Origin: Candidatus Dojkabacteria bacterium
Lineage (GTDB): Bacteria > Patescibacteriota > Dojkabacteria > B142 > WJKM01
Length of the DNA: 64,000 nucleotides
Assembly (NCBI GenBank): GCA_041918255.1
Contig: JAYRWD010000026.1
Location: 9,977 to 73,976 of the forward strand
Direction: 5' to 3'
The notes beneath the pieces were generated by a model. The model had not been told where the DNA came from. It searched no databases and worked only from the letters and a program-made list of their open reading frames with translations. Position 1 is the first letter of the stretch. Each line of letters opens with the position of its first letter. The translations under genes and the position numbers were made by a program. Shown here piece after piece: positions 7,982 to 60,600 of the stretch.

Positions 7982-8007
7982 TCATATCCGATCCTTTTTA
8001 CCGCAAA

Positions 8008-8038: not shown

Positions 8039-8056
8039 GATGGTCTAAAATCGGAT

Positions 8057-11537: not shown

Positions 11538-11561
11538 TTTGAGTCCTATTTAATAACTATT

Positions 11562-12038: not shown

Positions 12039-12412
12039 TGGATAATATGAATACTTTAAAACATTTCTAAATAACCACTGTCACCATGGCTATACATCCT
12101 CTTTCAAGAGTTGACTTGCCACAAAAGCGACGAATACCCATCCAATAAGTACATCTATCAAATTAATTACCGTGAATTCCAATGGCATGGCGAACCATAT
12201 TGCCTGTGGCAAAATTGAATGTGCATTTAGCGTGACAGCATTACAGTTTAATGGTTATAGAAATTAATCTGTTTTTTCAATATTCGACAACTAAGCAATA
12301 TTTATTATAGTACTATTTATTTCATTATAGAGATTAAGACTATTTATTAGAAAAAAATTACTTCCTGTGATTTTCAATATTTCAATTACTATGAAGCCAT
12401 TAAATTAGGAAA

Positions 12413-13084
12413 ATGATTGAATACACCCTCTTTTGTGTAGTTTTGCTTTATACGGCTCAATGGAGCCTATTAAATCTATTATTAGGTAGCCTTGGGGCAA
12501 AAAAATTCCCCATAACCATAGTTCATAACGATAGCATCAGGCAATTAATAAAGAACAAAACAGGGATAGAAGTCAAAACAATCAAAATTTCAGAATCCAA
12601 CAGCCCTTTTGGAATGATGATTGGTATTCCAACCAAACCTCAGCTTTTGCTTTCAAGAATACTTTACGATACATTTACACCTGATGAATTGGAATATGTG
12701 GTTCTACATGAAGTTGGACATTACTACCTATGGCATACTGTTACCGAGCTTGCAATTGGAATAATATTGTTTGTTGACGGTATTGTGATCCTCGGCAGTA
12801 CTCCGTCACTTTACAAATCTGTTCCCACCGCCTTATTACTTGGACTAGTGTTTGGCGTCATTATGGTTCGCCTTGGAAGGCTAAATGAATATCAGGCTGA
12901 TGCATACTCCCTTAGGCATATGACAAACCCACGGGGTATGGTTCTGGCAACAAATAAATTTAAAAGCCATTATAAAGGAAATAGAAATAAAATCATCGAG
13001 TTTCTGTTTTATCGTGGGAATCCTTTCGACAACAGAATAAAAATGGCTGAGGCCGAAATCGAAAGAAGAAAAACAAGTGAATAA
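12413..13084 (+). CDS. Membrane-anchored HExxH zinc metallopeptidase (M48/M56-like)
   Basis: An N-terminal TM helix, then VVLHEVGHYYLWH (HExxH plus a downstream His) and a further TM segment. Confidence 0.5.
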   Translation: MIEYTLFCVVLLYTAQWSLLNLLLGSLGAKKFPITIVHNDSIRQLIKNKTGIEVKTIKISESNSPFGMMIGIPTKPQLLLSRILYDTFTPDELEYVVLHEVGHYYLWHTVTELAIGIILFVDGIVILGSTPSLYKSVPTALLLGLVFGVIMVRLGRLNEYQADAYSLRHMTNPRGMVLATNKFKSHYKGNRNKIIEFLFYRGNPFDNRIKMAEAEIERRKTSE

Positions 13085-13313
13085 TTGGCACACGCTCTTC
13101 TGGGGAACAAGCCTAGGTTTGTTAACTCAATATGTTTATGGCTTGGAGTGAAGTACAGATCATTTATGTAAAATCTTAAAAGGTCAGATTGCAAGAAAGT
13201 AGTATCAATTATAAAGACGCACTTAGCCGTTAATTCTTGCCATAATATTTATTCCTCTTAACCATACTATCCTCCAAAGACATGATATACTTGCTAAGTT
13301 AGATATATTCACC

Positions 13314-28514: not shown

Positions 28515-30632
28515 GTGATTATTATTCGATCCGTTATGTTTCAAAAGAGATTGATAAAGAAAATATTAAAGGTGTGTTGTGTGCTTTTCGTATTAACAGG
28601 GTTTTTTATTGGCATGGGTCCTGTCCGCGGGGAAGGTCAAACAAGGGAATTCTGTGAGAAGGTTAGCGTGGTTGTTAGTACGGATAATGTGGATGAGGAG
28701 CAGAGTGTTATTGAAGTAGATTCAAATTTCATTCCAATTAAGCCTTATAAATTTAAGATACAAGTTAATCCGGATGCGTTTGTTGGGTGGAGTGATGCTG
28801 ATATGGAGATACGGATCGAGACAGATGCTATTTCAAGCTGGAATGACCCAGAACCAAATGATCCAAGTTTTATAATTAATACATATACAGCGAATGCTTT
28901 GTATGCAGAATTTAGTAGCAGATCAATTGAGGAGCTGGGAATGGGGCCATTTGCGTATATGTTAATGGAAAAGGGAACTAAAAAGGAATTTAAAATGAAA
29001 CGCAATAATAATGAAGAATTAGCCGATTGTGGCAAGATTATTGACGTCGTTCCATCTGATTATGTATCTAATAAGTGTAGTGATAGAAATCTTACCGCAG
29101 GTGCTTGGAAAGTTCCAGGATATTTCCAATGTAACTATAATAATGAAGGTTGGGATGTAAACACGTTTTCCACCTGTGATGCACAACAAGTTCGGCCCAC
29201 TGACGAGCTGTGTAGCGCATTGTTTAATGATAAGCTTACCGACGATAATACAGTATTCTGTTCAAAGTGTAAGACTGAAGCGGATTTACCAGGGTATGGT
29301 ACTACTCATCTTTATGGGGAATTGTGCGAACTTGGAGAGGGAAAGTGCGGGTATGATACTGGTTTAGTATGCCGAACTGTTGGATTGCAGAATTTATGTG
29401 TAAATAGTGATAAGCTTTGGGTTCGTGAAGATTGTATAGTTGGGGCAGATGAGTGTGTCGAAAAGGACAATGGGGGTTACACGGTCAAGTGTATTCAAAC
29501 GCAGCCATATACTTCTGTACCTGCTAATCCTTTGCAGCTCGCACAGATTATTGATCCGCCAGCAAGTAATAAATATTATGGAGTTGGGGTTATAGGTTCT
29601 ATGGGAGAATGTAAGTCACTGCAATATTTGGACAAAGTAGGCTGTGACACAGATCCCTACTGCCAAGGAAAAGTTGACGATGGTAATCCAGCAATAGTTG
29701 CATATAACTATGAGCTTGGAAAATGTATAAACAAAACTTATTGTGACTTTGGTTATTCATACGAAGAGTTTCCTAACGAAGAAGATGAAAACGTTCGGGG
29801 GACAGATGGACAAATTAGCATTGGATTAACCAAGGAAACCAAAGATCGGGGATATTCTGGGATTAGTGCAACATTATCTGGATTAGCCGGAAAAGAGATA
29901 AGCAAAGAGGCGGTGGGAAGTTTGAAATTTGAAAATATCCCATATGGTGAGGGTATCAAATATACTCTTAAGGTTAGTATCATTCCCGCTTCGCGGGGCG
30001 CAGGGATGATGGGCGGTTTACTTATTCATTCAAGTGCGCAAGCACCAGTAGTGTGTACCAAAACTAAGAGCATTGAGATGTTAGAAAAATTTAAAATAAT
30101 TGATCTTGAAGTCACAATAGACAAGGATGGAAAATGTACGTTAACGGTTGCCGAAGATTCTAGTTCAATTTCTCCCTCTTCATATGTTTCCAATATTGGC
30201 ATTGAAGGATGTGGTGACAGCCTAAGTTGCATCAATTGTTTAATTAGAAAAGACGCAACAAACTTCGAAAAGTTTACAAGTCTTGAAGAAGCCGTTGCCG
30301 CCAATGCAGGAGGCGAGGATAAAATTTATAGGACCAATAATATTTATACAGCGCTAGGGTGTATCGATCCCAGTGATCAGGGGATTATAGTAAGATTGTT
30401 ACAGATTTCTCTAGGTATAGTAGGAGGAATTACGGGGGCGCGTTTCGGACAGGCGGCTTACAAGTTTGGCAAAGGCGAGCCTGAGTCTACCAAGGAAGCA
30501 TGGGAAATAATCTGGTCCGCAATTTTGAGCCTTCTACTTATTGCATTCTCGGTAGTAGGTTTTCGATTTATCGGAATTAATCTATTCAAATTACTTACTC
30601 CCGGAACAGTAGAGATACCTTCTCCAAAGTAA
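28515..30632 (+). CDS. Large secreted Cys-rich protein that ends in a pilin-like (TrbC/VirB2-topology) paired-TM hairpin.
   Basis: A 705-aa product. An N-terminal signal anchor is followed by about 560 aa with more than 40 Cys, and the C-terminus is IVRLLQISLGIVGGITGARFGQAAY-[loop]-WEIIWSAILSLLLIAFSVVGFRFIGINLF. This has the same topology as the five genes that follow. Confidence 0.6.
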   Translation: MIIIRSVMFQKRLIKKILKVCCVLFVLTGFFIGMGPVRGEGQTREFCEKVSVVVSTDNVDEEQSVIEVDSNFIPIKPYKFKIQVNPDAFVGWSDADMEIRIETDAISSWNDPEPNDPSFIINTYTANALYAEFSSRSIEELGMGPFAYMLMEKGTKKEFKMKRNNNEELADCGKIIDVVPSDYVSNKCSDRNLTAGAWKVPGYFQCNYNNEGWDVNTFSTCDAQQVRPTDELCSALFNDKLTDDNTVFCSKCKTEADLPGYGTTHLYGELCELGEGKCGYDTGLVCRTVGLQNLCVNSDKLWVREDCIVGADECVEKDNGGYTVKCIQTQPYTSVPANPLQLAQIIDPPASNKYYGVGVIGSMGECKSLQYLDKVGCDTDPYCQGKVDDGNPAIVAYNYELGKCINKTYCDFGYSYEEFPNEEDENVRGTDGQISIGLTKETKDRGYSGISATLSGLAGKEISKEAVGSLKFENIPYGEGIKYTLKVSIIPASRGAGMMGGLLIHSSAQAPVVCTKTKSIEMLEKFKIIDLEVTIDKDGKCTLTVAEDSSSISPSSYVSNIGIEGCGDSLSCINCLIRKDATNFEKFTSLEEAVAANAGGEDKIYRTNNIYTALGCIDPSDQGIIVRLLQISLGIVGGITGARFGQAAYKFGKGEPESTKEAWEIIWSAILSLLLIAFSVVGFRFIGINLFKLLTPGTVEIPSPK

Positions 30633-30688
30633 CTGAGCAAAAGAAGGTAAAACAAGGTAAAATATTCATATAAAATATTAGAACTAGA

Positions 30689-31063
30689 GTGATGAGAGTG
30701 GTGCGGACCATAAAATCAAAACTTCTTGCGACAGCTGTTTTCGTCAGCACTTTTTCAATATTTGCTTTGAGGGTCGTACACGCCGTAGCTATTCCAGACC
30801 CAATAGGAAAAGATTTTCTAACCATCTTCAACGATGTCACCGGTCTCATTAAACCAATAACTGTACTTACCTTCCTAGCGACCTTTTTTTATGGTGGATA
30901 TACATGGATGACAGCAGGGGATAGCGAAGATGCGGTAAAAAAGGCCGGGAAAATTCTCACCACGTCAATTATCGGACTGATAATTATATTCCTAGCCCCA
31001 TCCTTAGCCGAACTTGTTGCAAGTTTGCTTGGAGTGAGGCAAATTATTGAATTTCCTAATTAA
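30689..31063 (+). CDS. TrbC/VirB2-like pilin-topology protein (signal peptide plus two TM helices), minimal version.
   Basis: A 124-aa product. It has a roughly 34-aa signal peptide ending AVA, helix 1 ITVLTFLATFFYGGYTWM, a short charged loop, and helix 2 ILTTSIIGLIIIFLAPSLAELVASLL. Confidence 0.6.
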   Translation: MMRVVRTIKSKLLATAVFVSTFSIFALRVVHAVAIPDPIGKDFLTIFNDVTGLIKPITVLTFLATFFYGGYTWMTAGDSEDAVKKAGKILTTSIIGLIIIFLAPSLAELVASLLGVRQIIEFPN

Positions 31064-31065
31064 CG

Positions 31066-31896
31066 ATGATGGATACAAATTTTCTTCGTAGTGCTAAAAC
31101 AATCTTAATTATTTTATGTGTTACTGGAACTGTCTACTTTGTTTCGCAGACCGGATATGTAAAGGCGGAGGGGGAAATATTAGATATCAAATGTGCTAGG
31201 GAAAGGATCCTAAATCCCACCGGTTGTTATGCAAGTGGCGAGAAAGATAGTCCAACAAGCAGTTTTAGTTTTTCGGGTACCGAGGAGAAAGGAGAGTTGG
31301 GGGGTTGTAAGGATCAAGAAAACAGCGAAAAATTTATGTGCGAATTAAATAAATTTTGCACTGGCTCTGGAGAGGAAAAAGATCAAACCTTTGGAAAAGA
31401 CGGATTAAATTACTCGGGGACCACTTTGCGATTCACTCAGGCCAACCTACCCAAGCTGATTAGAATGGCGCTCACAATCATTTTTTCCCTATTAGGCATC
31501 ACTGCACTCTTTATGGCTATTTACGGAATAATGAAATGGTTCTATGCCGTTCGCGGAGGTGGGGACGTTTCAAAGATGACAACATACTTTATGAATGGAA
31601 TATGGGGAGTATTTTTCGCGGCAGGAAGCATAGGCTTTACATATATGTTGTTTTGGGTTTTCGGGTATCGGGATAATATATTTGATTTCGGTGCTGTCTT
31701 TGATGAATTATATAGCGTAGATTGCGAAGCGGTTGTTAGCGAAAACGGAGATCCGGTAGACCCTACGCAAGTGCAAGCATTATGTGATAAATATAACCTT
31801 TCGTGTATGTATGTTCCGGGCAAATGTGTAGAGAGAGTGGCAGATTTCGATAGCTGTACTTCTAAGCCAAAAACAAGCAATATGAGGGTTACATAA
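31066..31896 (+). CDS. Pilin-topology paralog with a Cys-containing N-ectodomain and a Cys-rich C-tail.
   Basis: A 276-aa product with a signal peptide. Its TM hairpin is MALTIIFSLLGITALFMAIYGI / IWGVFFAAGSIGFTYMLFWVF. A Cys-rich tail follows. Confidence 0.55.
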   Translation: MMDTNFLRSAKTILIILCVTGTVYFVSQTGYVKAEGEILDIKCARERILNPTGCYASGEKDSPTSSFSFSGTEEKGELGGCKDQENSEKFMCELNKFCTGSGEEKDQTFGKDGLNYSGTTLRFTQANLPKLIRMALTIIFSLLGITALFMAIYGIMKWFYAVRGGGDVSKMTTYFMNGIWGVFFAAGSIGFTYMLFWVFGYRDNIFDFGAVFDELYSVDCEAVVSENGDPVDPTQVQALCDKYNLSCMYVPGKCVERVADFDSCTSKPKTSNMRVT

Positions 31897-31935
31897 GATA
31901 AGCCTATCCAGAACGTCTATAAATGTTACGCCAAT

Positions 31936-32688
31936 ATGGGTATGAAAAATAAAATATATTTATCATTCGCAACGCTCCTCACACTGTTTTCCTTTGCTAC
32001 GAGGGTAGCAGCTCAGGTTAATATTGATGTCCCAGACGGAAAAACCAAAATTGAGATAGATTATTTCAAACCATCGGCCTTTACAGATTTGATGAAGTTT
32101 GGGGCTTTAGGATTTGTGGGATATATCGCCATTTTCCTTGTTGGCTTTATGTTTATATATATCACCGTCCAAATAGCCATTTCCGCGGGCAAAATTATTC
32201 AAAGCCAAGGAGATTCTGGCAAACTCGAGGAAGGAGTTTCCGAAATCCAAAAATTTATGCGAGGGGTTTTGATAGCAATGTTATTTTTATTGGCATTTGT
32301 GGCGGTTGGAATCTTTATGGGAAGCGGAAATATTATGAAGTGGCCTTCTAAACTCGGACAATGTGGCGGGGGCGGGGTTTTGTTTAACGCAGAATATGAC
32401 GCCTCCCTGAAGAATGAAAAGATCTATGAGAAGGAAACGCAAGTACTATGTTGTAGAAATTTTGAAAGTTTGGACTTTGGGGACGAAAATACCGTCTTGG
32501 TTTCTCCAGTAGGGGGTATTAGAGGATTTAGCAAGGATGGACCTTCAGCAGGAAATCCATTCGCTATAGTCGTGGGAACCGAAACGGACGGAGGCTGGAT
32601 GTTTATCCTACCATCTGCAACAGGAGAATCTAGAGATTTACAATCGACCCAATCTGACCAAGAGAAATATGTTTGTTCGATTTATTAA
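31936..32688 (+). CDS. Pilin-topology paralog
   Basis: A 250-aa product with a signal peptide (…ATRVAAQ). Its TM hairpin is FGALGFVGYIAIFLVGFMFIYITV / VLIAMLFLLAFVAVGIFMG. A C-tail with CGGGG and CC follows. Confidence 0.55.
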   Translation: MGMKNKIYLSFATLLTLFSFATRVAAQVNIDVPDGKTKIEIDYFKPSAFTDLMKFGALGFVGYIAIFLVGFMFIYITVQIAISAGKIIQSQGDSGKLEEGVSEIQKFMRGVLIAMLFLLAFVAVGIFMGSGNIMKWPSKLGQCGGGGVLFNAEYDASLKNEKIYEKETQVLCCRNFESLDFGDENTVLVSPVGGIRGFSKDGPSAGNPFAIVVGTETDGGWMFILPSATGESRDLQSTQSDQEKYVCSIY

Positions 32689-32721
32689 GATTGCAACCTG
32701 AGGAGTTTCTTTGTATTATAT

Positions 32722-33387
32722 TTGAGAAAGCTAAAAATAATTAATATTATTTTAAAAAATATGAAGCAATTTAAAACATTGGCAAAAGTTGGTTTGGGTT
32801 TAGCTCTATCTTTGGCATCAACATATACAGTTGTAGCCGCTCAGTGTGGAGGTTGGTTGCCAGAATTCCTACAGGGGTTTGTGTGCGAGGATCCAGTAAA
32901 CAATTTAACAAACAGGGTGAAAGTGTTTTTCGTACTAGCTTTCGGAGCAGTAATACTAATGGGAGTTGTGTATACAATTTCGGCTGCGTTGAAGTTCATG
33001 CGAAGTAAGGGTGAAAGCGGAGAGATTGAAAATAGCCAAAAAGCAGTCACGGCGATTTTCTACGGAGTTGCTTCGCTTTTTGTTGGAGTGATTGGTATGG
33101 TTGTGGTCACACTATTCTTTTCTCCCACGGTTATTTTCCCTCAGCAAATTTGTATACAAGCCCCGGATAGCTACGGCTGTTTTGCCTGTCGTAATCCTAA
33201 GAAGGGTTCAAATGTTTCTTTCGTAGATATTTGTAATGCATGTAACGATGTGTCCGAGGCACCACTAAGTGATATTAGTGGAAATGTGACGTGTGCTGAT
33301 GATGTTCCCGCGAATATCTCCGATGATGATATAGTTCTAAAGCTTGATGAGGTAAAAACGGTTGGAACGAAAAAAGTTGGGGTCTAG
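32722..33387 (+). CDS. Pilin-topology paralog
   Basis: A 221-aa product with a signal peptide (…VVAAQ) followed by CGGW...C. Its TM hairpin is VFFVLAFGAVILMGVVYTI / AIFYGVASLFVGVIGMVVVTLFF. A Cys-rich tail follows. Confidence 0.55.
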   Translation: MRKLKIINIILKNMKQFKTLAKVGLGLALSLASTYTVVAAQCGGWLPEFLQGFVCEDPVNNLTNRVKVFFVLAFGAVILMGVVYTISAALKFMRSKGESGEIENSQKAVTAIFYGVASLFVGVIGMVVVTLFFSPTVIFPQQICIQAPDSYGCFACRNPKKGSNVSFVDICNACNDVSEAPLSDISGNVTCADDVPANISDDDIVLKLDEVKTVGTKKVGV

Positions 33388-33586
33388 ATTGGAACAGGAT
33401 TATTCAAATCCGCTTTCTTCAAACTGAATAAAAATTGACTTTATGCGATACCCGAAAAAGGCAACAAATGTGTGTCACACTGAGTTCATCGAGGTGCGAC
33501 ACTATCATATTTTTACCCCTCGACGTGCTTCTGCCAGAGGCAGACAGACAGGGTGACATAATAAATGTAGTTTCGTATAAAGTCTA

Positions 33587-34540
33587 ATGAAGTATAAATT
33601 GCTTTCTTTGTTTGCCATTGCTCTGACTGTTAGCACGGTTTTTTTCACCACGCCAGGAATCGCTCTGGTTAGTGCGCAAAGTCAAGAGGAAGTAAATCCG
33701 CTTTTCGATCTCAGTTCAACCGATCCAATCTATATAAATCTCAATTACGACTGTACAAATATTAAGTGGTCGGAAGGTGCGATAGGGATTTATAGAAAAG
33801 TCTATAAGTCCGGGGACAAATATTATGAAGCCAATCCTCGAATAAACGAAATCCAGCAATATCTAAATGGCAAGCCCTATGCCGAGACCTACTTTCTTTT
33901 TGAAGGCGAAACGGGATTGAGTTTAGAAGAGAGTTCTATTAACAAAAATGATTTCAATGCCACGCCATTCAACGAAATAAAGAGGATTGCTCCCTCGCCT
34001 TTTATTATTCCTAGTGATAATCCAGAGCCTATTTTGAAAGAATACGTTGGCATGCCCCTGTGTGATGGTGCCTATTCCTTTAGTGGAAACGATTTTCTTG
34101 CTCCAAATCAAAAGATGAGAGCAAGTCTCGATAATCAGAACGAAAGTTTCGGAGAGCCAAAAAGTTTTGTCCCAGCAAATTTCGTACCCCCTGTATTGCA
34201 GCAAGCGGAAAATTACTTCGTGGAGATAATATACATTTTTTGGAGTATTATTGGACTAGCAGCAGTTGGGCAGTTATTTGTCATAGGTTTGAAAATCCTG
34301 ACATCAAGCTTTAGCCCGGAGCAAAAAGGAGCTACGTTACGCTCGGTAGCATTATGGGTGGTCGGACTGGCATTGGCCATAGTGGCTATTCCACTTTTGC
34401 AATTTATTTTTAGAATTTTGGACATACAAGACACTAGATGCTTCAAATATACTGAGAATAATGAATTAGTTTACGATCTGACCGTTCCGGGTTTCACGTT
34501 CTTCTTTAATGATACATGTACGTCCGAGGAGAGCTTGTAG
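33587..34540 (+). CDS. Pilin-topology paralog with a roughly 170-aa ectodomain.
   Basis: A 317-aa product with a signal peptide (…LVSAQSQ). Its C-terminal hairpin is FVEIIYIFWSIIGLAAVGQLFVIGL / LRSVALWVVGLALAIVAIPLLQFIF. Confidence 0.55.
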   Translation: MKYKLLSLFAIALTVSTVFFTTPGIALVSAQSQEEVNPLFDLSSTDPIYINLNYDCTNIKWSEGAIGIYRKVYKSGDKYYEANPRINEIQQYLNGKPYAETYFLFEGETGLSLEESSINKNDFNATPFNEIKRIAPSPFIIPSDNPEPILKEYVGMPLCDGAYSFSGNDFLAPNQKMRASLDNQNESFGEPKSFVPANFVPPVLQQAENYFVEIIYIFWSIIGLAAVGQLFVIGLKILTSSFSPEQKGATLRSVALWVVGLALAIVAIPLLQFIFRILDIQDTRCFKYTENNELVYDLTVPGFTFFFNDTCTSEESL

Positions 34541-39950: not shown

Positions 39951-42155
39951 ATGCAAATTGATAGAAATAGAATAAAAACTCAGTATTTCGTTGGGGCTTC
40001 TCGTAAGACTCAGTGGTCAAGCGTGTATATATTCTCACCCCATATACCCGCCGTTTATGAAAAGATGGGCGATCTGTTTGCCATTATTACGTTATCGAGC
40101 CCCCCTTCATTTGATTCTAATACCGCAGGAAATCTCTTGATAGACGCACTGCAAGAGGCATATTTTGATGGCCCAAATGAGAATCCATTTGAAGGAATTG
40201 ATTATGCAGTGAAGTCGGCAAAGAAACGTTTAGAGGATCTAATTGAGAGTGATGAAATAATTTCGCAAACTGGAATCGAACTTAGTTTACTATTGGTAGT
40301 TATTCATGAAGAAAAGGCTTATTTAGCCCGCATCGGCGAAGGAGCAATTTTTGGATTCAGAGAGGGCGAAATGGTTGAATTCACTACTAGTTTGAAAGAT
40401 CCCGATGGCAAGGGACATATGAAAACTGCAAGTCTAAGGGTTAGTCCTGGAGATCGATTTGCGATTCTGACTAAAGAAATTCAGCAAAATATTTCAAAAG
40501 ATGAAATTGAAGCAAGTCTCGTGAAGTTTAAGCTAGAGAATATTGAAAATAAAAAGTTTTCAGATGAGGCCTTGAGCGCGATTTTACTTATTGAGGTCGA
40601 GAAAGAGGAGAGGGCAGATATACTAGAGATCAAAGAGTCAATTCAGAATGACAGTGTCAAAGATGAAGATTTCAAAGGGATGTATAGAGAATTTGAAACA
40701 CGAACTTTGAAGGAAAGGGGGGATGAAGAAGCCGAATATAAATTTTTGTCCGCATCAACTTATCATTCTACACCAATATTTATGAGGCTCAGAAGGCAAG
40801 TCAAAGTAGTAATGAATTCTAGATCGTTGGCTAAGGTTATTATATATGGGCGTAATGTCCTCGGGGTACTATTCGGACTATTGGGATCTTTACATCGAAC
40901 CATAAAGTCAAAAGTACTAAAGATACCTCCTAAAGAAATGCTGTATATAAATGATTTGAACAAAGGTGGTAATAAAAGACCAGCAATATTTTTCTTTGTT
41001 TTATCAATTTTATTGATTTACTTTATTATTACAGGAGTTTCGAATTCAAGAGAACGCGCAAAGCTTGCATTTGAGGCTGAGCAAACGATCGTAACATCTG
41101 AAGCTGAACTGACTGAGCTAGAAAATAAAGTAGCCTCTATCATTCTTACCTACGGTAACGAAATAGATAGGGATGCAGCTTTTCGAAAAGTAGACGAGAT
41201 TAAATTAAAATTAGAAGCACTGAAGGTAGAAGAAGTATCTGAGAAACAAAATGCAATTCTAGATAGATTGGAAGAAGTGAATCGTAAGCTTCGTAGGATT
41301 ATTCAGGTCAGAGAAGTTAAAGTGGTCAAAGATTTTGCAGTAATAGAGGGTAGCCAAATAGCTGATATTGATATCGGAGCAGAACAAATTTTTGTGGCCG
41401 ACGGTGGTGATGGCAAAATTTTAGCATTTGATAGGGCAGGTGGGAGTATGAAACAATTAGCCACCGGCTTAAAAGGTCTAATCTCTATAGCATATTCAAA
41501 TCTTGGGCATTTAGCATTTATTGACGGTGATCCTCAAAGAGTTTTAGGTCTTATCAGACTGTCTGATAATATATTGACTCGGGTACCAGGTATCGATGCA
41601 ATTAGGCTCGGCAGGGTAAATGATATCGATGCTTACAAAGTTGGGGAGAACGATAATCGCATTTATGCTGTTCGACCAGAGTCTTCACAAGTTATTCAAA
41701 TGCGTCAATCGGCAGGAGAGTATGTTTTGCCCGAAATTAGACTTGAGAATAAAGATTTGGGGAAAATTTCAGATCTTGAGGTAAGTGACGGGAGGATCTA
41801 CATTCTGTCTCAGGACAAAGGAATTAAGGCTTTTTTTGGAAACGGGGAGGTAGCTTTGAAGCTGTACGGTCTTATGCAACCAGAATTATGGAATTCGGCA
41901 AATAATATATATGTGGATTCAAAATATATATATTTAAGCAATGATTCTATGAAGAGGATTGCGGTTTTCTCAAAATTTAGACCATCGGATGAAGGAGCGG
42001 TGGATTTTATCGCACAGTATGATTTAACCGGATTGCCTCAGAGCGGTAAACTCGGCGAATTGGTTGCCAGTCAACAACAGAGAACTATATATGTCGTACT
42101 CGGAAGTAAGATAGTGAAACTTGATATGTCAGCTATGGAGGAATTCACATACTAG
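39951..42155 (+). CDS. Hypothetical 734-aa single-pass membrane protein: N-terminal cytoplasmic domain, coiled coil, and a C-terminal repeat (beta-propeller-like) domain.
   Basis: A TM helix (PAIFFFVLSILLIYFIITGV) lies mid-protein. The N-domain is faintly PP2C-like (ARIGEGAIFGF), but the DGHGG motif is absent. The C-terminal 300 aa are rich in repeated G/D-containing strands. Confidence 0.4.
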   Translation: MQIDRNRIKTQYFVGASRKTQWSSVYIFSPHIPAVYEKMGDLFAIITLSSPPSFDSNTAGNLLIDALQEAYFDGPNENPFEGIDYAVKSAKKRLEDLIESDEIISQTGIELSLLLVVIHEEKAYLARIGEGAIFGFREGEMVEFTTSLKDPDGKGHMKTASLRVSPGDRFAILTKEIQQNISKDEIEASLVKFKLENIENKKFSDEALSAILLIEVEKEERADILEIKESIQNDSVKDEDFKGMYREFETRTLKERGDEEAEYKFLSASTYHSTPIFMRLRRQVKVVMNSRSLAKVIIYGRNVLGVLFGLLGSLHRTIKSKVLKIPPKEMLYINDLNKGGNKRPAIFFFVLSILLIYFIITGVSNSRERAKLAFEAEQTIVTSEAELTELENKVASIILTYGNEIDRDAAFRKVDEIKLKLEALKVEEVSEKQNAILDRLEEVNRKLRRIIQVREVKVVKDFAVIEGSQIADIDIGAEQIFVADGGDGKILAFDRAGGSMKQLATGLKGLISIAYSNLGHLAFIDGDPQRVLGLIRLSDNILTRVPGIDAIRLGRVNDIDAYKVGENDNRIYAVRPESSQVIQMRQSAGEYVLPEIRLENKDLGKISDLEVSDGRIYILSQDKGIKAFFGNGEVALKLYGLMQPELWNSANNIYVDSKYIYLSNDSMKRIAVFSKFRPSDEGAVDFIAQYDLTGLPQSGKLGELVASQQQRTIYVVLGSKIVKLDMSAMEEFTY

Positions 42156-42179: not shown

Positions 42180-42635
42180 ATGGAAAGTAAGCAATACGCA
42201 AAAAATAAAGCCGCGTTTCATGATTATAGAATTATTGAGGAATTTGAAGTAGGTCTTGTTTTACAGGGATGGGAGGTTAAATCTATCCGGGTAGGGGCTG
42301 TCAGTCTTAAAGAAAGTTACATTGCCCCGGTAGGAAAAGAATTATTGATTTATGGAATGAATATTGCAAAGTGGAAGTATACACTTAGGGTAGGGGAACA
42401 GATGGAATTGCGACCGCGCAAATTACTAGTAAATAGAAAGGAAATAGAGCATATTGTCTTTGAGCAAAAAAGAAATGGTGTAACAATCATCCCGCTATCA
42501 ATATACGATCGACGTGGACATATAAAATTGAAAATAGCACTGGGGAAGGGATTACGTAAATATGATAAAAGGGAAGTCGAAAAATCCCGAGAAATCATGA
42601 AAGGGAGTAGGGAAAAACAGGCGGAAAGATGGTAG
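42180..42635 (+). CDS. smpB: SsrA-binding protein SmpB
   Basis: NKAAFHDYRIIEEFEVGLVLQGWEVKSIR, with a basic C-terminal tail. It is 151 aa. Confidence 0.9.
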   Translation: MESKQYAKNKAAFHDYRIIEEFEVGLVLQGWEVKSIRVGAVSLKESYIAPVGKELLIYGMNIAKWKYTLRVGEQMELRPRKLLVNRKEIEHIVFEQKRNGVTIIPLSIYDRRGHIKLKIALGKGLRKYDKREVEKSREIMKGSREKQAERW

Positions 42636-42682
42636 GCACAAGCTATAGCTATGATATAATTTATATCAATTAAGTACAACAA

Positions 42683-43072
42683 GTGTTTAGAAAAAAAATT
42701 GATGAGCAAACAGGTGTGCCATCTCCTGAAATAGCAGGAGGAGCGGTCTCTACTGGTGTCCCTCGAGGTAGTGAGGTACTCACAAACAAAGAGATTCAAT
42801 CCGGAAGTGGGTATAATGAGAAGAAAACAGATACCCAAAAAGAGACTAAGATTCCTCAGTCGCCAACTCAAACGCAGATTAAGACGCAAGGTCCGGCGCA
42901 GACTACGCAAACAGTAGTGCCGAAAGTATGGGGTTACAAAATTTCTCCCTCGTTAGTTTCGAATCTAGGTAAGGTAAGGAGGGGGAAAAGTTCTGCAGAT
43001 CCTAAAACAGGAATTGGTTGCTTGTATATGCTTATCGATAGACTTTTTAGAATGCAGACAGCCTCGGCCTAG
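42683..43072 (+). CDS. Doubtful small ORF encoding a low-complexity T/Q/K-rich product.
   Basis: The 129-aa product is largely compositionally biased (TQKETKIPQSPTQTQIKTQGPAQTTQT). It has no convincing SD and could be non-coding. Confidence 0.2.
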   Translation: MFRKKIDEQTGVPSPEIAGGAVSTGVPRGSEVLTNKEIQSGSGYNEKKTDTQKETKIPQSPTQTQIKTQGPAQTTQTVVPKVWGYKISPSLVSNLGKVRRGKSSADPKTGIGCLYMLIDRLFRMQTASA

Positions 43073-43151: not shown

Positions 43152-45623
43152 ATGATTCAAGCTGTCCGCATATTAGCACAAATGGATTTTTTCTCCTTAG
43201 TTATGGACCCTGCGTCATTCGTAGATGAAGCAAGCAATGACCCTTCGTTTCTGATAATGGTTTGCCTTATGGCAATATTGGGTCTTGTAATTTTGATTCT
43301 AGCGTATAAGCTATTTATGAAGGGAGTGATGCATGCTTCTATGGAAAAAAAGTCATTAAGCTCAGTTCTCTTTGAAGTTAGACTTCCGCATACGAATGAG
43401 GTCGAGATACAATCAGCCGATCAAATGCTAACGGGGTTTCTTGGCATTGAAAGAGAACTGAAGGGGCTACAAAAATGGTTTGGTTCGAAATATTATATTA
43501 GTTTTGAAATTGTAGCGTTGCCTGAGACTATAAGATTTTTTGTAAATGTCCCAAAGAAATTAGCGACACTTGTAGAAAAACAAATAAATGGTACTTATCC
43601 TGAGGGTGAAGTAATAAGAACGGATGAATATAATATATTTGGACCTGGGCAGAAGGTAGAATTCTGTTCATTGAAGTTAGCTGAGGATCCGTATAAGCCC
43701 ATCCGGACATATGAAGAGCTTTCGCAAGATGGTTTAAGCAGCATTACCTCCGTTATGAATAAAATGGGTCCTGGTGATGCTATGGCGTTACAGATTGTTA
43801 TTACTCCCTCATCAGGAGAGTGGCGCAAAGATGGTCGAAAATACGTAAATAAAATACGAGAGAATAATTCTGATCCGGAAAAATCAAAGATAGAGGTAGA
43901 AGACGAAATACTTGCTGCAATTGAAAAGAAGGCAGAAAAGCCTGGATTTGAATCAGTTGTGAGGATTGTAAGTGTTTCTACGTTAGGAGAAATAGCTAAA
44001 TCAAATTTGGATAACATGGTTTACGCGTTTGATCAGTTTGCTAATCAAAATGGAAATAGGTTTAAAAAAGTTTCATACAAGAAAAGAAAGGAACAAAGGG
44101 AATTCATGAAGTCCTTTTTGTACAGATTCCCCTCGAAAGCGATGATTTTAAACTCCTCTGAATTAGCTACTATTTTTCACTATCCAAATAGCAAAATTAC
44201 TACTCCGCACATACATTGGCTTACCTCGAAACGTGCTCCAGCAAGTGGAGAAGTCTTATCTCATTTCGAAAATGCAGGGGTATACCTAGGAGTGAATGAA
44301 TATAGGGGCACGAAAAGAAAGATATTCATGCGCTATGACGATAGGCGACGACATTTTTATTATGTTGGTAAAACAGGTTCTGGTAAATCTGTAATGTTGC
44401 AGCATATGGCCTATCAGGATATTTTAAACGGACAGGGATTAGCATTCCTGGATCCTCACGGGGACGCCGTTGAATGGCTTATGGATCGAATACCGGCCGA
44501 ACGTGTCGAGGACATTATTTATTTCAACCCTGCGGATACGGATCGTCCAATAGGTATGAATATCATGGAATGGTATACCGAACATGATAAACACATTATT
44601 GTGAATGGTTTCTTGGGTCTTCTTAATAAATTATTTGATCCTTACAATCAAGGTATTACTGGACCACGTTTCGAGCAGGCCGTAAGGAATGCGATGTTGA
44701 CTGTTATGGCAAAAAAAGGCACTAGCTTGGCTGAAGTGATGACACTTTTACAAAATGACAAGATAGCAGAGAAATACTTTCCATATTTAAACGATGATAT
44801 TGTAAAACGCTATTGGACAGAACAAATAGCCCATACCCAGGAATTTCACAAATCGGAAATTTTAGGATATATAACCTCTAAGTTTGACAGATTTATCACA
44901 AATAAATTGATGCGAAATATTATTGCTCAAAGCAAATCTGGCTTTGATTTCCGTACAGTTATGGATGAAGGCAAGGTTTTATTAATTAACTTATCCAAGG
45001 GATTAATCGGGGAAGAAAACTCACAATTCCTAGGGCTATTATTGATACCCAAAATGTTGCAAGCAGCGATGAGTAGGGCGAATATTGAAGCTGGATCAAG
45101 GCGGGATTTTTATCTATATGTAGACGAGTTCCAGAATTTTGCGACGCCTGATTTTGCTCAAATTCTTTCGGAGGCTCGAAAATACAGGCTTAACCTAATT
45201 GTCGCTAACCAATACATCGCCCAAATGACGGATGAGATCCGTGATGCTGTTTTCGGTAATGCAGGGTCTATAGGTAGTTTCAAAGTGGGAGTGAATGATG
45301 CGCAGTACTTGGCGAATGAATTTGAGCCAGTATTTAATCAAAACGACTTAATCAATTTGGAAAATTTGAATATGTATATCAAGTTACTTGTAAAAGGTGA
45401 ATATCCTCCTCCATTTTCGTTAAAATTAGATACGGATTTGGTCTTCAAAACACCACCGAATAAAGAAATTGGTCAGCTTGTTAGGGAACTATCGCGACTG
45501 AAGTATGGGAAAGACGCAAAGCTGGTCGATGCCGAGATAAAGGCAAGAGAACAAGAAGATGGACCAGGCAATATTGTATCACAACCACCGCCTCCGGCGT
45601 ATAAGCCACCGCTGAGTAGCTAA
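43152..45623 (+). CDS. VirD4/TraG/TraD-family type IV coupling-protein-like P-loop ATPase
   Basis: An N-terminal TM helix. Walker A YYVGKTGSGKS is followed by LDPHGD, which resembles the T4CP DPKGE motif. Walker B is YVDEFQNFA, with GNAGSIGSFKVG beyond it. The product is 823 aa. Confidence 0.55.
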   Translation: MIQAVRILAQMDFFSLVMDPASFVDEASNDPSFLIMVCLMAILGLVILILAYKLFMKGVMHASMEKKSLSSVLFEVRLPHTNEVEIQSADQMLTGFLGIERELKGLQKWFGSKYYISFEIVALPETIRFFVNVPKKLATLVEKQINGTYPEGEVIRTDEYNIFGPGQKVEFCSLKLAEDPYKPIRTYEELSQDGLSSITSVMNKMGPGDAMALQIVITPSSGEWRKDGRKYVNKIRENNSDPEKSKIEVEDEILAAIEKKAEKPGFESVVRIVSVSTLGEIAKSNLDNMVYAFDQFANQNGNRFKKVSYKKRKEQREFMKSFLYRFPSKAMILNSSELATIFHYPNSKITTPHIHWLTSKRAPASGEVLSHFENAGVYLGVNEYRGTKRKIFMRYDDRRRHFYYVGKTGSGKSVMLQHMAYQDILNGQGLAFLDPHGDAVEWLMDRIPAERVEDIIYFNPADTDRPIGMNIMEWYTEHDKHIIVNGFLGLLNKLFDPYNQGITGPRFEQAVRNAMLTVMAKKGTSLAEVMTLLQNDKIAEKYFPYLNDDIVKRYWTEQIAHTQEFHKSEILGYITSKFDRFITNKLMRNIIAQSKSGFDFRTVMDEGKVLLINLSKGLIGEENSQFLGLLLIPKMLQAAMSRANIEAGSRRDFYLYVDEFQNFATPDFAQILSEARKYRLNLIVANQYIAQMTDEIRDAVFGNAGSIGSFKVGVNDAQYLANEFEPVFNQNDLINLENLNMYIKLLVKGEYPPPFSLKLDTDLVFKTPPNKEIGQLVRELSRLKYGKDAKLVDAEIKAREQEDGPGNIVSQPPPPAYKPPLSS

Positions 45624-47347: not shown

Positions 47348-47421
47348 TGCTCCAGGGTGGACTCGAACCACCGACCCCCGCTTTATAAGAACGATGCTCT
47401 AACCGACTGAGCTACTGGAGC
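47348..47421 (-). tRNA. tRNA-Ile (anticodon UAU)
   Basis: Minus-strand sequence GCTCCAG-TA-GCTC-AGTCGGTTA-GAGC-A-TCGTT-CTTATAA-AGCGG-GGGTC-GGTGG-TTCGAGT-CCACC-CTGGAGC-A. All stems pair, with two G-U wobbles in the anticodon stem, and CCA is not encoded. Its 3' end abuts the SLH gene stop. Confidence 0.8.
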
Positions 47422-54671: not shown

Positions 54672-57600
54672 ATGTCATTTTCAATTGTACTATTAGACGA
54701 TGATTTTGTTTTTAGACAGACGGTCAATATCGTATTGACTAACCTGTCAAAACGAACCGGCATTGATCTAAAAGTTTTTACCTCTGGAAATGGAGTAGAA
54801 GGATTGGGATATGTATACGTTACCAATCCCGACCTAATCATTGTAGACACAACATTGCCCAAATATGCAGGCAAGGAGCTCATAGAGTTTATTATCTCAA
54901 ACCAACGAATCAGCAAAAATTCAATTGTAGTCACAGACCAAGGAGATCGAAAAGTATCCATCAAAGAGCCAGGATCAATAATACTCAGCAAAAAATCTAA
55001 AACTTTTTTAAAAGATTTATCACAGATAGTTCTGGAAATCGCACGGAAGCACGACAAATCTCTTCCCCAACAGGTTGGTAAAGTAGCTGGACTGAATATA
55101 GGGCAAAGAGTGGTCGAACTTGCCAATAAAAGCGATATCGAGGCTATGAAAGCCGAGCGCAGCAAGAGCTTTTTTCTACGGAAGTGGCATTATGTCGTAA
55201 GATTTGGTTATGAAGTGATATTAAGCATTTTACTGACCAGTTTATACATCAAGTTTAGGAGACCTGAAGACGCGAATATTGAAGGTTCTCCCGCTGACGA
55301 GAAATATTATCGAGTTCGGGTGTATCCCACCATAAGTACCATTGGAACCACAGCCGTATTTTTCTTATTGCAAGTAATTCTTTTCATACTAGGCGGCGTC
55401 ACGGTTATGAATCTAAGATTCGATAGCATATTCGCAGCATGGAAGGGGAGTGAAGTCATCGATTTAGCAAACAGTGAATTTGATACAGATGCGATTGAAT
55501 ATGATGACGGAGTGTTAAGACTAAAAAACCTAAATAGCGTTGTTATTGAACCCCAAGAACAAGAAATACCTTTGTCGGGTCCCGTTGACGAAAGCTCTGA
55601 GGATGTCGATTCGGTTGATGAAGTAGACGATGGGGAGAGTCCGGTACCTACCGACATCGAAATTCCTTCGGAGGTGGCGAGTCCCACAGAAGAGGTAGTC
55701 CCGACTGAGGAGGTGGGTGAAGAATCATCAGATATTACAAATGAGGAGGATCAGCAGATTCCCTCTGTCGAACCCGAAGTAATTGTGGATGAAAATTCCG
55801 GTGAAGGAAATGTTCAAACAGAAGAATCAGGACAGAGCGAGCCTATTCAAACTGAGGAGTCTGGATCAAGCGAGAATAGTACATCTGTTGATGCTGATAG
55901 CAATAGTTTAGATTCGAACGAAGGTTCTGATGCAACTGTTTTAGGTATAGAAGATGAACGCCCCATTCGGACAAAACCTGAATATTCAACTGAGAAACCA
56001 TCAGTAGTGTTTAACGAAGTAGTTAAATTTTCGCAGTTAGTAAGCATACTTGAAGAAAGCAGGGATAACGATTCATTGAGTAGTATGCTTTCGCCAATAT
56101 ATGGATATACTAAAGGACAATATCCCAAAAATGGGATTACCTATCAATTATCTCCTGATGGAGAACATTGGTTCTTCTATGATGGAGCTGGATGGACCGT
56201 AACAGAGCAGGGCTATATGACATCAAACTCGATCCAGGAAGTAAATTTGAATCTGTCAAAGTTTGAAAGCGCGCTTGGCGAGGTATATCTAAGAGCTTTC
56301 TTCATCTCGGATGGAGATACTTTAGTACAATTAAAAGCTCTTACAATTAATCGCGATCTAAATCTTATAACCAAGCTCTTAGAGGAGCAACAGTGGATTT
56401 TACCCGAAGAATTATCCCTTCCGACCAGTATCTTAGTACAGGCTATGCGACCGGTGGTGTTGAGCGCTGCTACCGTGGATGGAACAAAAATAGTGACTGG
56501 ACGAGTAGAAATGCCCGAAGGTATTACGGTCAGTGAAAGCGAGTTGCAGAATCTGGTGGTTGAAATTTATCAAACAGAAGCTGATGATGAAGCGATGGAA
56601 CCTATTGGACGAGAAAAGTTGATAGGGACAACTAATGTACAGAGAGTCACACGTAGTGATGGCATCGTCGAGGATCAATTTATGCTTGAGGTTCAAGGGG
56701 AGGGAGGGAATTTTGTAAGTGCTAGAATTGTCTACAAACCAGATAGTCCAGAAGAAACACCAGTCGAAGTGGAGTCGGTTGAATCAGATTTAATTCATAA
56801 CGCCTCTTTCACTATAACAAGCAATGCGGATACGGGTGATGCTAGCCCGGGGAATGGTGTCTGCAATACCGGTGGTGCAATATGTACCCTCAGAGCTGCG
56901 ATACAGGAGACTAATGCACTTGCCAATGGGGCAAGTCCGGATAATATACTCTCAAATCTATCTGCCTTGCAAAGATTAATAACCCCAGATACCGCGCTTC
57001 CGGATATTACCGATCCAGTTAGTATTGATCTATCTCAAGAGGTAGGTCGTGCTCCTACGATGGTTGTACGCTTGGATGGAAGTGATATCGCAGATCCAAA
57101 TACGGTGAATGGATTAACTATAACAGCTGGGTCTAGTACTGTCCAAGGTTTTGCAATTTTCAACTTTGGAGGAAATGGGATAAAACTTTCGACTGGGAAT
57201 AGTAACGTAGTTAAGTGGATGAACATCGGAACAAATATTTTGGAAGAATCGAACCCAAACGGTCAGAATGGTATTCATATTTTGAATTCAGGAAATAACT
57301 CGATCGGTATAACTGGCAGTACTACCATCATTAGTAGCAATACGCTCAATGGAATTTTGATCGAGGGGGCCCAGTCAACTGGCAATACGGTCTATAACTG
57401 CAAAGTAGGGGTTAATGGTGCAGGGACAGCCGCCCTCGGGAACACGCAGAGTGGGATAAAAATACTTAATGCTGACTCGAATATTATTGGTGACACACTA
57501 AAGTCAAACACTATCTCGGGAAATACTCTGGATGGGATAGAGCTTGACGGAGCAGACTCAAATACTATTAGGGCTAATTTTATTGGAGACTATACAAATG

Positions 57601-60600
57601 CCGGCAGTTCATTTGTAAACGCTAGATATGGTATACAGCTAACAACTTCGACTTCAAATACAATCGCGTCTAATTATATTACTGGTAATTCTTATGGTGG
57701 AGTATTGCTCGCAGGCACGTCGGATGTTAATACATTGAACGCTAATACTGTTGGTATTACATATTCAGGTGCGACCAAAGGCAATGGGACAAACAAGAGT
57801 GGTATCTATATACAGGACTCCTCAGATAATTTACTGGGTACATCCTCTTCAAGCAATAAGAATATAGTTTCCGGACATGATGTTGCTGGTATTGTAATAG
57901 AGGGGCTAAATGCTACCGCGAGTGGCAATTTGTTGAAGTATAATTATGTAGGGACGAATACTAGTGGCGCAATTTCGTCCGGTTTCGAGAATGATAGAGC
58001 TGGGATAATTATTGCGGGGGATGCAGATTCTAATATCATTGGTGGAGATTGGAATGATGAGGGTAATGTCATAAAGGGAAATGGATCAGGAATCCTCGTA
58101 ATGAGCTATAGTAATTTGTCAAAAAATCCTGATGGAAATAGTATAGTGAGCAATACGATCAGTGGAAATACGGGTTATACTGAAACCGGACTTGGAATAG
58201 ATTTGGCAGATGATACCGATCAAGATTTAGAGCCGGATAGCGGTCAGGGGGGTAATAGTAATGATGCCGGTGATAGTGATGGCGGGGCAAATGGATATCT
58301 TAATTATCCGGTTATCACGCAGGCAAGTACCTCCCTTGGCGTGACTACAATAGATTATACGATAGATATCGAATCCTCCCCTTATTATCTTCTGCAATTT
58401 TTTTCTGTAACTAGTGAAGATCCTACTGGATATGGAGAGGCTGACACATTATTGTGTCAGGAAATTGTCCCATTAGCTGATATCGGAAATACTCTTGATT
58501 GCGGTGGCGCTTCATTAGTAGATGGTGTGGCGTTGTCGATAACGGTTACCCTGTGTGAAGATAGTGGGTGTTCTGCATTAGGTGCAACGTCCGAATTTGG
58601 GCTAAATATAATTGGTACAAGCGATTCGTTTGTTGTAAATTCTATAGCGGATTCCGCAGATGCGTCCCCTGGGGATGGAGTATGTGAAACTGCTAGCTCT
58701 ACATGTACGTTGAGGGCCGCGATACAGGAAATGAATACTAAGCCATCTGGCGGGTATATCCTATTTGATTTGAATCCAGCTGATGGACAGCACTATTGCT
58801 ACGTTGATGATGGAGTCGAAGGACAAATTACAAATAAAACTACTATTGCAACTGCGATTAATAACGATTCAGATGCCGCTTGTGGTGGTGGTACTGTAGA
58901 TTCGGATTTTCCGAATAGCTGGTTCATGATTAGTCCGAATTCCGCCTATCCAAGTATAGCCGTACCTGTCGTTCTAGATGGGTATTCACAAGACGGTACT
59001 GCAGAAGCAACTTCTGACTCAGAAGCCATTCTTAAAATAGCAATCCGTTACACATTTAGCGGATCACAATTATTCAATCTTAATAGCTCTGGAATCACTT
59101 TTAAAGGGGTGTCTATAGGTATGGGAACGTCTGGTTCCGGTGGAGATCCTAATGTTAACTTTGCAATTAGAATCTCTGCGGGAGGAGTGAATGTTTCCGG
59201 TAATTATATTGGAACAGGACCGTCTGGATACGAAACCAGTTTGGGTCTAGCGCAGGATGGGGTGTCTGTTAACTCAAGTGGTGATGGTATCACTATTGGT
59301 GGGTCAGATCCAGCTAATAGAAATATTATCTCCGGAAATCATTACAATGGTATAGCTATCAACACCTCGGGGGTTACGGTGTCGGGGAATTATATAGGTT
59401 TAGCTAGAGATGGACTAACTGACCTGGCAAATAGCTACTGGGGAATTGCTGTATACGCTGGAGATAACATCATAGGTGGTGATAGCAGCGATGAAGTAAA
59501 CTATATCGGGGGAAACACATTAGGCGGAATTTTACTAAGTGGAGCCAGTTCAAGTGAAAATCAGGTATTAGGCAATTATATTGGGTTTGGAAGAGATGGT
59601 TTGACTGCGGTAGGAAATCTAGGTCCAGGTATTCAGTTCGAGTTAGGCGCGAATAATAATCGTATAGGGAGTATGTTATCGAACGCGGCGAATCTAGTTG
59701 CGAATAATTCCGGCAACGGGGTGCAAATTGCTGATGGGGATTCGATCGGAAATTCGATACTTAGAAACTCGATATACATGAATGATGGCATTTCGGTTGA
59801 CTTAGGGCCTGATGGTTTCACACCTAACGACCCTAATGATATTGATTCCGGTGCAAATACGCTTCTGAATTATCCAGATATTTCGTCTGTTCGATATACC
59901 TCCGAGGGCGTGGAAATTTATGGAGCGCTTGAGGCGGACGCGAATGTTTCAAATTATTACCGAATATTTTTTTACAGTAATCCGAGTGGTAGCGGATCCT
60001 ATGAAGGTAAATACTATTTGGGTTACACAGACGTGAGTTTAGATTCGGGGATTTATGATTTTCAATCAACACCTATCATCATCCAGGGGACAAAGCCTGC
60101 TAGTGGAAATAACGCAATTACATCGATGGCTGTGGCATGTGATGCTACTCCATGTGTAACATTCGCTGATTCTTCAGAATTTAGCGGGGCATTTGATGCT
60201 GTTGGTAATAACGGTGAAGTGGATATTCCTGAAGAGGTTGAAGTAGGGGATCAAATTGATCTTCAAGTTGTGGATTATGACGTCGACCGAGATGCTAGTA
60301 CGCCCGAAACGATTTCTTTGACAACTGTAAACGATAGAACAGGCGAGGAAGAGGTTATTATTCTGACTGAGACCGAACCGGGCAGTGGAATTTTTGAGGC
60401 CACTCTAGATACTCTAGAGAATCAGGTGGCGGGCGACAATAGCGATGGCGACGTGAATGTTTCCGTTGATGATACTCTAACCACTTCTTATGACGACGAA
60501 CTTACCTCTGATGGAGATACGCTCGTTGTCTTATTCGCCACAAGCGTAGTTGCCCAGGGTTCTACGGATCCGGAAATTACGCCAACGCCTACTCCGACAC

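Follow-up and report, generated by a model that had tools for sequence, protein, structure and literature searches.

A 64,000-nucleotide stretch of a Candidatus Dojkabacteria genome (contig JAYRWD010000026.1 of assembly GCA_041918255.1, forward strand, positions 9,977 to 73,976; hereafter the window, numbered from its first letter) carries on its forward strand, at 43152..45623, a gene for an ATPase that is best read as a P-loop ATPase of the VirD4/TrwB/TraD lineage and as a distinct architectural subtype within it. That subtype is best read as a single transmembrane (TM) helix, then DUF8128, a domain predicted to resemble the N-terminal domain (NTD) of VirB4, and then a nucleotide-binding domain of the type IV coupling protein (T4CP) kind with an all-alpha insertion. 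We infer a partnership with a type IV secretion system (T4SS), and put at roughly 60% the probability that the protein is the coupling ATPase of a patescibacterial T4SS-like machine.

One membrane helix, DUF8128 and a T4CP-type ATPase domain

The gene is an ATG-started open reading frame (ORF), stop included in its coordinates, and its product is 823 aa long; on this the ORF listing and the original prediction, made from the sequence alone, agree. That prediction had also given the protein one N-terminal TM segment. Only one segment, at aa ~33-55, rises above 1.5 in a Kyte-Doolittle scan, and the AlphaFold model (predicted local distance difference test, pLDDT, 84.5; predicted template modelling score, pTM, 0.71) has one long helix at aa 31-69. 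We place the sole TM helix at aa 33-55 (43248..43316). As Lys-rich residues come after this helix, the bulk of the protein is predicted, by the positive-inside rule, to be cytoplasmic.

An alpha/beta domain, aa 62-396 (43335..44339), is Pfam DUF8128 (PF26449), and the T4CP-type nucleotide-binding domain, located by Pfam, NCBIfam, PDB sequence and hhalign matches, covers aa 397-760 (44340..45431). Within the latter, a motif scan found all the motifs that had been read off originally: Walker A (GKTGSGKS, aa 406-413; 44367..44390), LDPHGD (aa 433-438) and the Walker B region (YVDEFQNF), where FYLYVDE at aa 653-659 (45108..45128) is followed by conserved FQNF and ARKY...NQ motifs. Secondary structure in the AlphaFold model places an all-alpha insertion between Walker A and Walker B, at aa 477-605 (44580..44966). 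The model and the alignment of homologues delimit a C-terminal tail, aa 761-823 (45432..45620), made of two conserved helices (LSRLKYG.D...E.EI..R), in which G786, E795 and R799 are invariant among 35 aligned homologues, and then a disordered, Pro-rich end with pLDDT <50 from aa 804 onward.

About 350 residues lie between the TM helix and the P-loop; in TrwB the distance is ~60 residues. The original prediction was right about the length of this stretch and wrong in calling it devoid of any recognisable motif, because the region is DUF8128.

The C-terminal half is of the T4CP type by sequence

The ATPase half is, by sequence, of the T4CP type (TrwB, TraD, DotL). In a Pfam scan the protein scores 24.0 bits against PF02534 T4SS-DNA_transf (cutoff 20.1) and 23.4 bits against PF12696 TraG-D_C (cutoff 22), with TrwB_AAD_bind slightly under its cutoff, and an NCBIfam scan gives a match to SXT_TraD at 9e-13. 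We also used a family profile drawn from 55 diverse members of the DUF8128 ATPase family. In PDB sequence searches, the single protein and the profile both find TrwB and DotL as their top matches, and up to E <= 10 the profile reaches no VirB4 chain. By hhalign, the profile aligns to TrwB at 97% (E 9e-11), versus 9-10% for the VirB4 proteins TrwK and PrgJ.

Domain signatures across the 55 members give the same picture. TrwB_AAD_bind and TraG-D_C are found in 51, DUF87 in 48, AAA_10 in two and FtsK_SpoIIIE in one; the VirB4-specific families CagE_TrbE_VirB and P-loop_TraG (PF19044) are found in none. The many DUF87 matches arise because the P-loop core is common property. Invariant throughout the 55 are G406, G411 and K412 of Walker A, together with D658, E659, K677 and Q687 in and downstream of Walker B, and D434, P435, H436 and G437 of LDPHGD do not vary among the 35 aligned homologues.

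The all-alpha insertion, a T4CP trait that the original prediction had proposed to look for, is made up of eight helices in the AlphaFold model. It falls inside the stretches that align to TrwB by hhalign and to the TrwB_AAD_bind profile, and corresponds to the all-alpha domain of T4CPs. Because VirB4 carries a similar insertion, the presence of these helices does not by itself separate a T4CP from a VirB4.

DUF8128 is predicted to fold like the N-terminal domain of VirB4

DUF8128 is annotated in all of the top 120 homologues and in an identical database protein, and it is from this precomputed annotation that the PF26449 assignment was taken. Conservation of the domain is strong: about 25 of its positions do not vary among 35 aligned Dojkabacteria-type homologues, and it has a conserved FH(F/Y)PN motif (H343, P345). 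As a query on its own it retrieved 1811 representative clusters (50% identity level), always as an N-terminal domain; among the 150 matches listed, the full-length proteins are mostly 800-1100 aa, reaching 1422, and many others are fragments.

The structure models of this domain are confident. When it was compared by Foldseek with the PDB, the top 13 matches were all chains of TrwK, the sole VirB4 returned, at E-values of 5e-8 to 6e-6 and TM-scores of ~0.45, and no HerA structure was returned. The full-length model is collinear with full-length TrwK over ~900 columns (Foldseek E 1e-16), and the high root-mean-square deviation of this alignment points to a different orientation of the domains. 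That DUF8128 folds like the VirB4 NTD is, on these predicted structures, a strong lead, short of proof of homology.

Taken whole, the model matches TrwK/VirB4, TrwB, Cag-beta and HerA, and so stays within the VirD4/VirB4/FtsK superfamily, where the original prediction had placed the protein. Of the three descriptions offered there, a VirB4/T4CP hybrid suits the architecture best, with a T4CP-type ATPase half and its all-alpha insertion behind a domain of predicted VirB4-like fold. An FtsK/HerA-like translocase is disfavoured by the single FtsK_SpoIIIE signature in the family and by the N-domain fold search, which gave no HerA structure. The third, a lineage-specific coupling protein, fails on the distribution of the family.

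The family extends beyond Patescibacteria

A homologue search returned 2713 database proteins. The top 120, all at E <= 1e-273, are 780-917 aa long and all carry PF26449 together with T4CP or DUF87 domains; the identical protein and the best named homologues belong to Candidatus Dojkabacteria. In species-representative genomes we found at least 599 coding stretches of the family, and nearly all of the best 80 match across both domains. These 80 come from Dojka-, Levy-, Woese-, Davies-, Curtiss-, Roizman-, Collier- and Shapirobacteria, WWE3, Saccharimonadales, Uhr-, Magasanik-, Falkow-, Berkel-, Doudna- and Peribacteria, and Paceibacterota. Some genomes hold two paralogues, in tandem or a few genes apart (loci L046, L063 and L078); in L063 and L078, genes for a ~200-aa protein and a 346-aa sigma-factor-like protein lie between the two.

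The N-domain alone also matches proteins of Bacillus and haloarchaeal plasmids. A 27.5-kb B. subtilis plasmid encodes an 885-aa homologue whose alignment with the family profile covers both domains (hhalign 100%, E 2e-57). Its gene lies immediately upstream of a Replic_Relax gene, after which come TcpC, TcpE and a separate 847-aa VirB4, and this is where a Tcp/Tn916-like conjugation operon has its T4CP gene. The similar Bacillaceae plasmid pGIAK1 is reported to have a VirD4-domain protein beside Replic_Relax (PMC3756968). A Haladaptatus salinisoli plasmid carries the two modules as separate genes, a 350-aa N-domain protein directly upstream of a 930-aa T4CP-like ATPase (10240-11292 and 11377-14169). 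As the modules are adjacent separate genes on haloarchaeal plasmids, they are coupled across lineages, and the split confirms that they act together. The H. salinisoli pair is preceded by a 1072-aa hypothetical protein, and its arrangement parallels the TrsD/VirB4 split.

Phages also encode homologues. The ATPase matches phrog_5156 of the PHROGs database at 3.9e-89 over aa 250-799, and by tblastn the homologues of lytic or large Bacillus phages (phage G gp156, SP-10, PBC5 gp50, SBSphiC and Stills) span aa 115-796; PBC5 gp50 (6794-9022 of its locus) lies amid early and replication genes. For the ATPase domain, the closest plasmid relative is on a Sulfitobacter plasmid (34% identity, E 4e-62; 7920-9107 of the locus), where a 395-aa stand-alone P-loop protein without the N-domain sits among transposases. 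Also considered was a DUF87 protein of a Rhodococcus plasmid, whose ATPase domain is related; its N-terminal region is not detectably DUF8128.

The DUF8128 ATPase family is therefore not specific to Patescibacteria, with full-length homologues on Bacillus plasmids and in Bacillus phages and relatives on haloarchaeal plasmids. It is also already catalogued, as Pfam DUF8128 and phrog_5156. Full-text literature searches found no paper on PF26449 or DUF8128, and a VirB4-like N-domain in coupling proteins is not mentioned in the available portions of a T4SS review and of papers on Patescibacteria.

The patescibacterial T4SS has a separate VirB4

Patescibacteria have a T4SS of their own. In a survey by Quinonero-Coronel et al. 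2025 (PMC12102498), cited here from the portion available, VirB4 was detected in 2,417 of 3,035 Patescibacteria genomes, with Dojkabacteria genomes appearing as VirB4-positive in its tables, and 5,713 T4CP homologues were counted in 2,918 of the 3,035, only 148 of them near virB4. Almost no relaxases were found. The role of this essential, relaxase-less T4SS is described as unknown in the accessible text of PMC11665869.

The patescibacterial VirB4 is about 500-530 aa long, consists of a P-loop domain (PF19044, AAA_10) and is encoded a few genes from dnaN/dnaA. In both loci that we inspected it is preceded by a separate TraC-like (PF26593) protein (L089, 6149-9599; L090, 7093-9593), and in L089 by PrgI as well. 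As this VirB4 is distinct and split, the 823-aa protein is an additional ATPase.

Genomic neighbourhood and the small upstream ORF

The window is chromosomal, with dnaA and dnaN at 20.4-23.2 kb, where GC skew switches sign. The ATPase gene is flanked by smpB, a small ORF, a gene for an S-layer homology (SLH)-domain protein, tRNAs, a Xer-like recombinase and the RNase P protein. Its Dojkabacteria relatives keep the order SpoIID ... large protein - SmpB - small ORF - ATPase. We looked for an operon conserved across Patescibacteria and found none: neighbour clustering of 81 loci gave no universally linked gene, and the biggest neighbour family, the Xer-like recombinase, reached 20 of the 81.

The small ORF directly upstream of the ATPase gene (42683..43072, forward strand) encodes 129 aa and is defined by synteny, alignment and a hidden Markov model (HMM). 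Its N-terminal half is disordered and of low complexity, and its C-terminus is a conserved helix (…GYKI.P.L…LY.LIDRLFR). Other Dojkabacteria have it at the syntenic position, in a form that can be aligned. When iterated, an HMM of the whole ORF drifted into low-complexity sequence, and the HMM used was built from the C-terminal segment; it found 20 proteins in 83 loci, of which about 19 are the ORF directly upstream of the ATPase gene. A match inside the ATPase-family protein of locus L029 was discounted as probably a TM-helix match. The small ORFs of Dojkabacteria and Microgenomatia-type loci form one family, always directly upstream of the ATPase gene. More broadly, a small same-strand ORF precedes the gene in 61 of 80 loci, versus 42% for control genes, and in other candidate phyla radiation (CPR) lineages the slot is filled by unrelated small proteins. 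The 129-aa product is non-membrane and has no Pfam, PHROG or PADLOC match and no match to PrgI or VirB3.

Just past smpB and ahead of the small ORF lies a promoter-like site, TAGGCA-16-TGnTATAAT (42633..42660, forward strand), the top scorer in this region, with 10/12 matches and an extended -10. The small ORF and the ATPase gene, between which no terminator-like site was found, may be transcribed from it as a two-gene operon. The site is only suggestive, because the region's count of such sites is not above that of shuffles.

About 9 kb upstream of the ATPase gene and ~6 kb from dnaA, six consecutive genes (28515..34540, forward strand; 705, 124, 276, 250, 221 and 317 aa) encode secreted or membrane proteins that carry VirB2-like pilin tails, an array identified by T4SS_pilin matches and by inspection. 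The T4SS_pilin PF18895/TrbC match is 2e-11 for 30689-31063 and weak for 33587-34540; by eye, the other members combine a Cys-rich ectodomain with a C-terminal hydrophobic pilin-like tail. The 705-aa ORF at 28515 was considered as a VirB4 and ruled out, since it is one of these secreted Cys-rich proteins with a pilin-like tail. The array keeps its relative position in other Dojkabacteria loci only, and it is like the arrays reported essential in S. epibionticum. The original prediction had allowed for an ATPase recruited to a local system, here the nearby pilin array; gene linkage does not demonstrate that membership.

Other features of the window are recorded here for completeness. Throughout Dojkabacteria, the gene for a 734-aa protein (39951-42155, forward strand), with a weak PP2C-like N-terminus and a faint NHL match in its homologues, keeps synteny with smpB and the ATPase gene. 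A 2345-aa ORF at 54672-61709 (forward strand), with beta-helix/NosD and CarboxypepD_reg matches and a sub-threshold N-terminal match to a receiver domain, is probably a giant surface protein. On the reverse strand, at 47348-47421, is a tRNA-Ile with anticodon UAU. Most bacteria read AUA with a lysidine-modified CAU tRNA, and the UAU tRNA may signal TilS-independent decoding.

A coupling role and its alternatives

If the protein is a coupling ATPase, then its architecture suggests how it might work. The one TM helix and the ~330-residue DUF8128 take the place of the usual two-helix membrane domain of a T4CP. By analogy with T4CPs, which are hexameric, the ATPase would form a ring at the cytoplasmic membrane face and spend ATP on recruiting DNA or protein, or on moving it into or out of the patescibacterial T4SS-like apparatus, whose parts are VirB2-like pilin arrays, PrgI/VirB3, the split VirB4 and VirB6. 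In R388, the N-domain of VirB4 makes protomer-protomer contacts and contacts with VirB3/VirB8; for this reason we propose that the N-domain is a docking or oligomerisation module, attaching the ATPase either to the inner-membrane platform or to other copies of itself. An adaptor or regulator is the role proposed for the small upstream protein.

Several observations weigh against this proposal, some on its predicted fold and some on its connection with a T4SS. The VirB4-like fold depends on modest TM-scores (~0.45) obtained with a predicted structure. The N-domain profile gave no hhalign signal with the N-domains of TrwK or PrgJ or with two patescibacterial TraC-like proteins, and an enlarged DUF8128 profile gave none with a 45-sequence VirB4-NTD alignment; with all profile comparisons empty, we dropped a sequence-level link between DUF8128 and VirB4, and the similarity stands at the level of predicted fold only. 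PcfC, a bona fide Gram-positive T4CP, aligns to the family profile at 3.5% by hhalign. No relaxase, VirB4, VirB3 or VirB6 gene was found in the window. Across 80 loci of the family the neighbours are housekeeping genes that differ by lineage (SmpB, DnaX, GyrB, CysS, Xer-like recombinase), and none of the T4SS genes shows consistent linkage, with VirB4 close by in a single locus and pilin genes close only in Dojkabacteria-type loci. Because lytic Bacillus phages encode homologues, the family can act outside a conjugation apparatus. Finally, in S. epibionticum a t4cp homologue, so classed by the survey authors and perhaps a DUF8128 protein, was reported to be non-essential while the T4SS genes were essential, and those authors raise exaptation (PMC12102498, available portion).

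On the main alternative account, a real possibility if an unlikely one, the protein is an exapted T4CP-like motor without a T4SS role, a housekeeping membrane ATPase working with the small upstream protein, possibly in DNA uptake or processing or in envelope or division functions. The housekeeping neighbourhoods, the lineage-specific synteny and the lack of T4SS neighbours in most loci all fit such a motor, as do its near-universal presence in the phylum, the early/replication setting of the phage homologues and the dispensability reported in S. epibionticum. However, no alternative partner machinery is conserved beside the gene, and the Bacillus homologue lies within a conjugation operon. According to the same portion of PMC12102498, moreover, the T4SS is equally universal in the phylum, and even genuine systems often have their T4CP gene away from virB4.

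That the protein is instead a second VirB4 that has diverged, with a task in assembly or pilus biogenesis and an ATPase domain that drifted toward T4CPs, seems to us improbable. Its NTD-plus-P-loop architecture and its length equal those of a canonical VirB4, the full model is collinear with TrwK at the best Foldseek E-value, hhalign alignments to TrwK and PrgJ are collinear over 570-610 columns though not significant, and the resident patescibacterial VirB4 is without a fused NTD. These points are outweighed, in our view, by the ATPase domain itself, which carries no CagE_TrbE_VirB or P-loop_TraG signature in any family member and AAA_10 in only two, and whose profile finds TrwB and DotL and no VirB4 chain in the PDB. 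The TM anchor and C-terminal tail are T4CP-like traits, and the Bacillus operon holds both the homologue and a normal VirB4. Least credible of all is a chromosomal defence-system or phage-derived ATPase (HerA or MADS mad8-like), for which a PADLOC mad8 match at 3e-15, weak HerA matches on the P-loop region, the phrog_5156 match with its Bacillus phage homologues and the frequency of DUF87 can be cited, but the mad8 match is restricted to aa 398-699, three scanned neighbours match no defence model, no prophage genes were found nearby, and a fixed syntenic place beside smpB across the class and near-universality in the phylum are unlike patchy defence islands; we rejected the defence (PADLOC) and prophage readings on this genomic context.

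We therefore favour a coupling ATPase of a T4SS-like machine. A T4CP subtype with a VirB4-like N-domain suggests a docking mode open to testing and an evolutionary bridge between VirB4 and VirD4. This subtype is near-universal in a huge uncultivated phylum and occurs as well in Bacillus plasmids and phages, which are tractable to experiment, and the fold comparison would offer a first structural reading of DUF8128, a Pfam domain of unknown function. According to the available part of a 2025 review (PMC12857230), the way in which a T4CP is joined to the type IV secretion channel has yet to be defined. It is conceivable, though we would bet against it, that DUF8128 coupling proteins keep or have regained an ancestral architecture linking the two sister ATPases, with the N-domain docking on the inner-membrane platform through the contacts that VirB4 protomers make with one another and with VirB3/VirB8. 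If true, this would explain in a testable way how T4CPs dock onto T4SSs, and would define a third T4CP class common to Patescibacteria, Bacillus plasmids and phages, and haloarchaea.

Comparison with known systems

Among phage proteins, phrog_5156 (phage G gp156, PBC5 gp50) is homologous to the ATPase over most of its length; unlike the 823-aa ATPase gene, the phage genes are in early/replication regions and no T4SS is present. For the MADS defence system, PADLOC found no match in the three neighbours scanned.

VirB4 proteins (TrwK of R388, PrgJ of pCF10) differ from the ATPase in several respects. The N-terminal half has no sequence likeness to the VirB4 NTD, nor does the protein resemble VirB4-specific Pfam families; its ATPase domain scores as a T4CP and it has its own TM helix; and its gene is not next to virB3/prgI. 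A separate VirB4 coexists with it in Patescibacteria and on the Bacillus plasmid. A parallel is the split VirB4 of pGO1-type monoderm and patescibacterial systems (TrsD/TraC-like, PF26593), which, as predicted for the DUF8128 ATPases, combines a VirB4-NTD-like module with a P-loop module of the FtsK/HerA superfamily. In both cases the modules occur fused or as adjacent genes, and the haloarchaeal relatives of the DUF8128 family are split. Unlike in the split VirB4, however, the P-loop module is of a different family, and hhalign found no similarity between DUF8128 and two TraC-like proteins.

The patescibacterial DUF8128 ATPases have been counted before, in all likelihood. Judged by description, the "T4CP homologues" of Quinonero-Coronel et al. 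2025 (PMC12102498) are almost certainly these proteins: they are VirD4-profile matches, near-universal in the phylum and rarely near virB4. The available portion of that paper makes no mention of their N-terminal domain or architecture.

It is the VirD4-type T4CPs (TrwB of R388, TraD of F/SXT, DotL) that the ATPase most resembles. They are likewise membrane-anchored P-loop ATPases with Walker A and B motifs, they share with it the all-alpha insertion, the post-Walker-B RK...Q motif and the C-terminal tail, and they are its best sequence matches at both the single-sequence and the profile level. Unlike them, the ATPase has one TM helix and not two, carries a ~330-aa cytoplasmic DUF8128 before the ATPase domain, and in the window has no relaxase or T4SS gene linked to it. 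T4CP genes usually sit next to a relaxase gene, and the gene of the Bacillus plasmid homologue adjoins a relaxase-like gene, just as those of VirD4-type T4CPs do.

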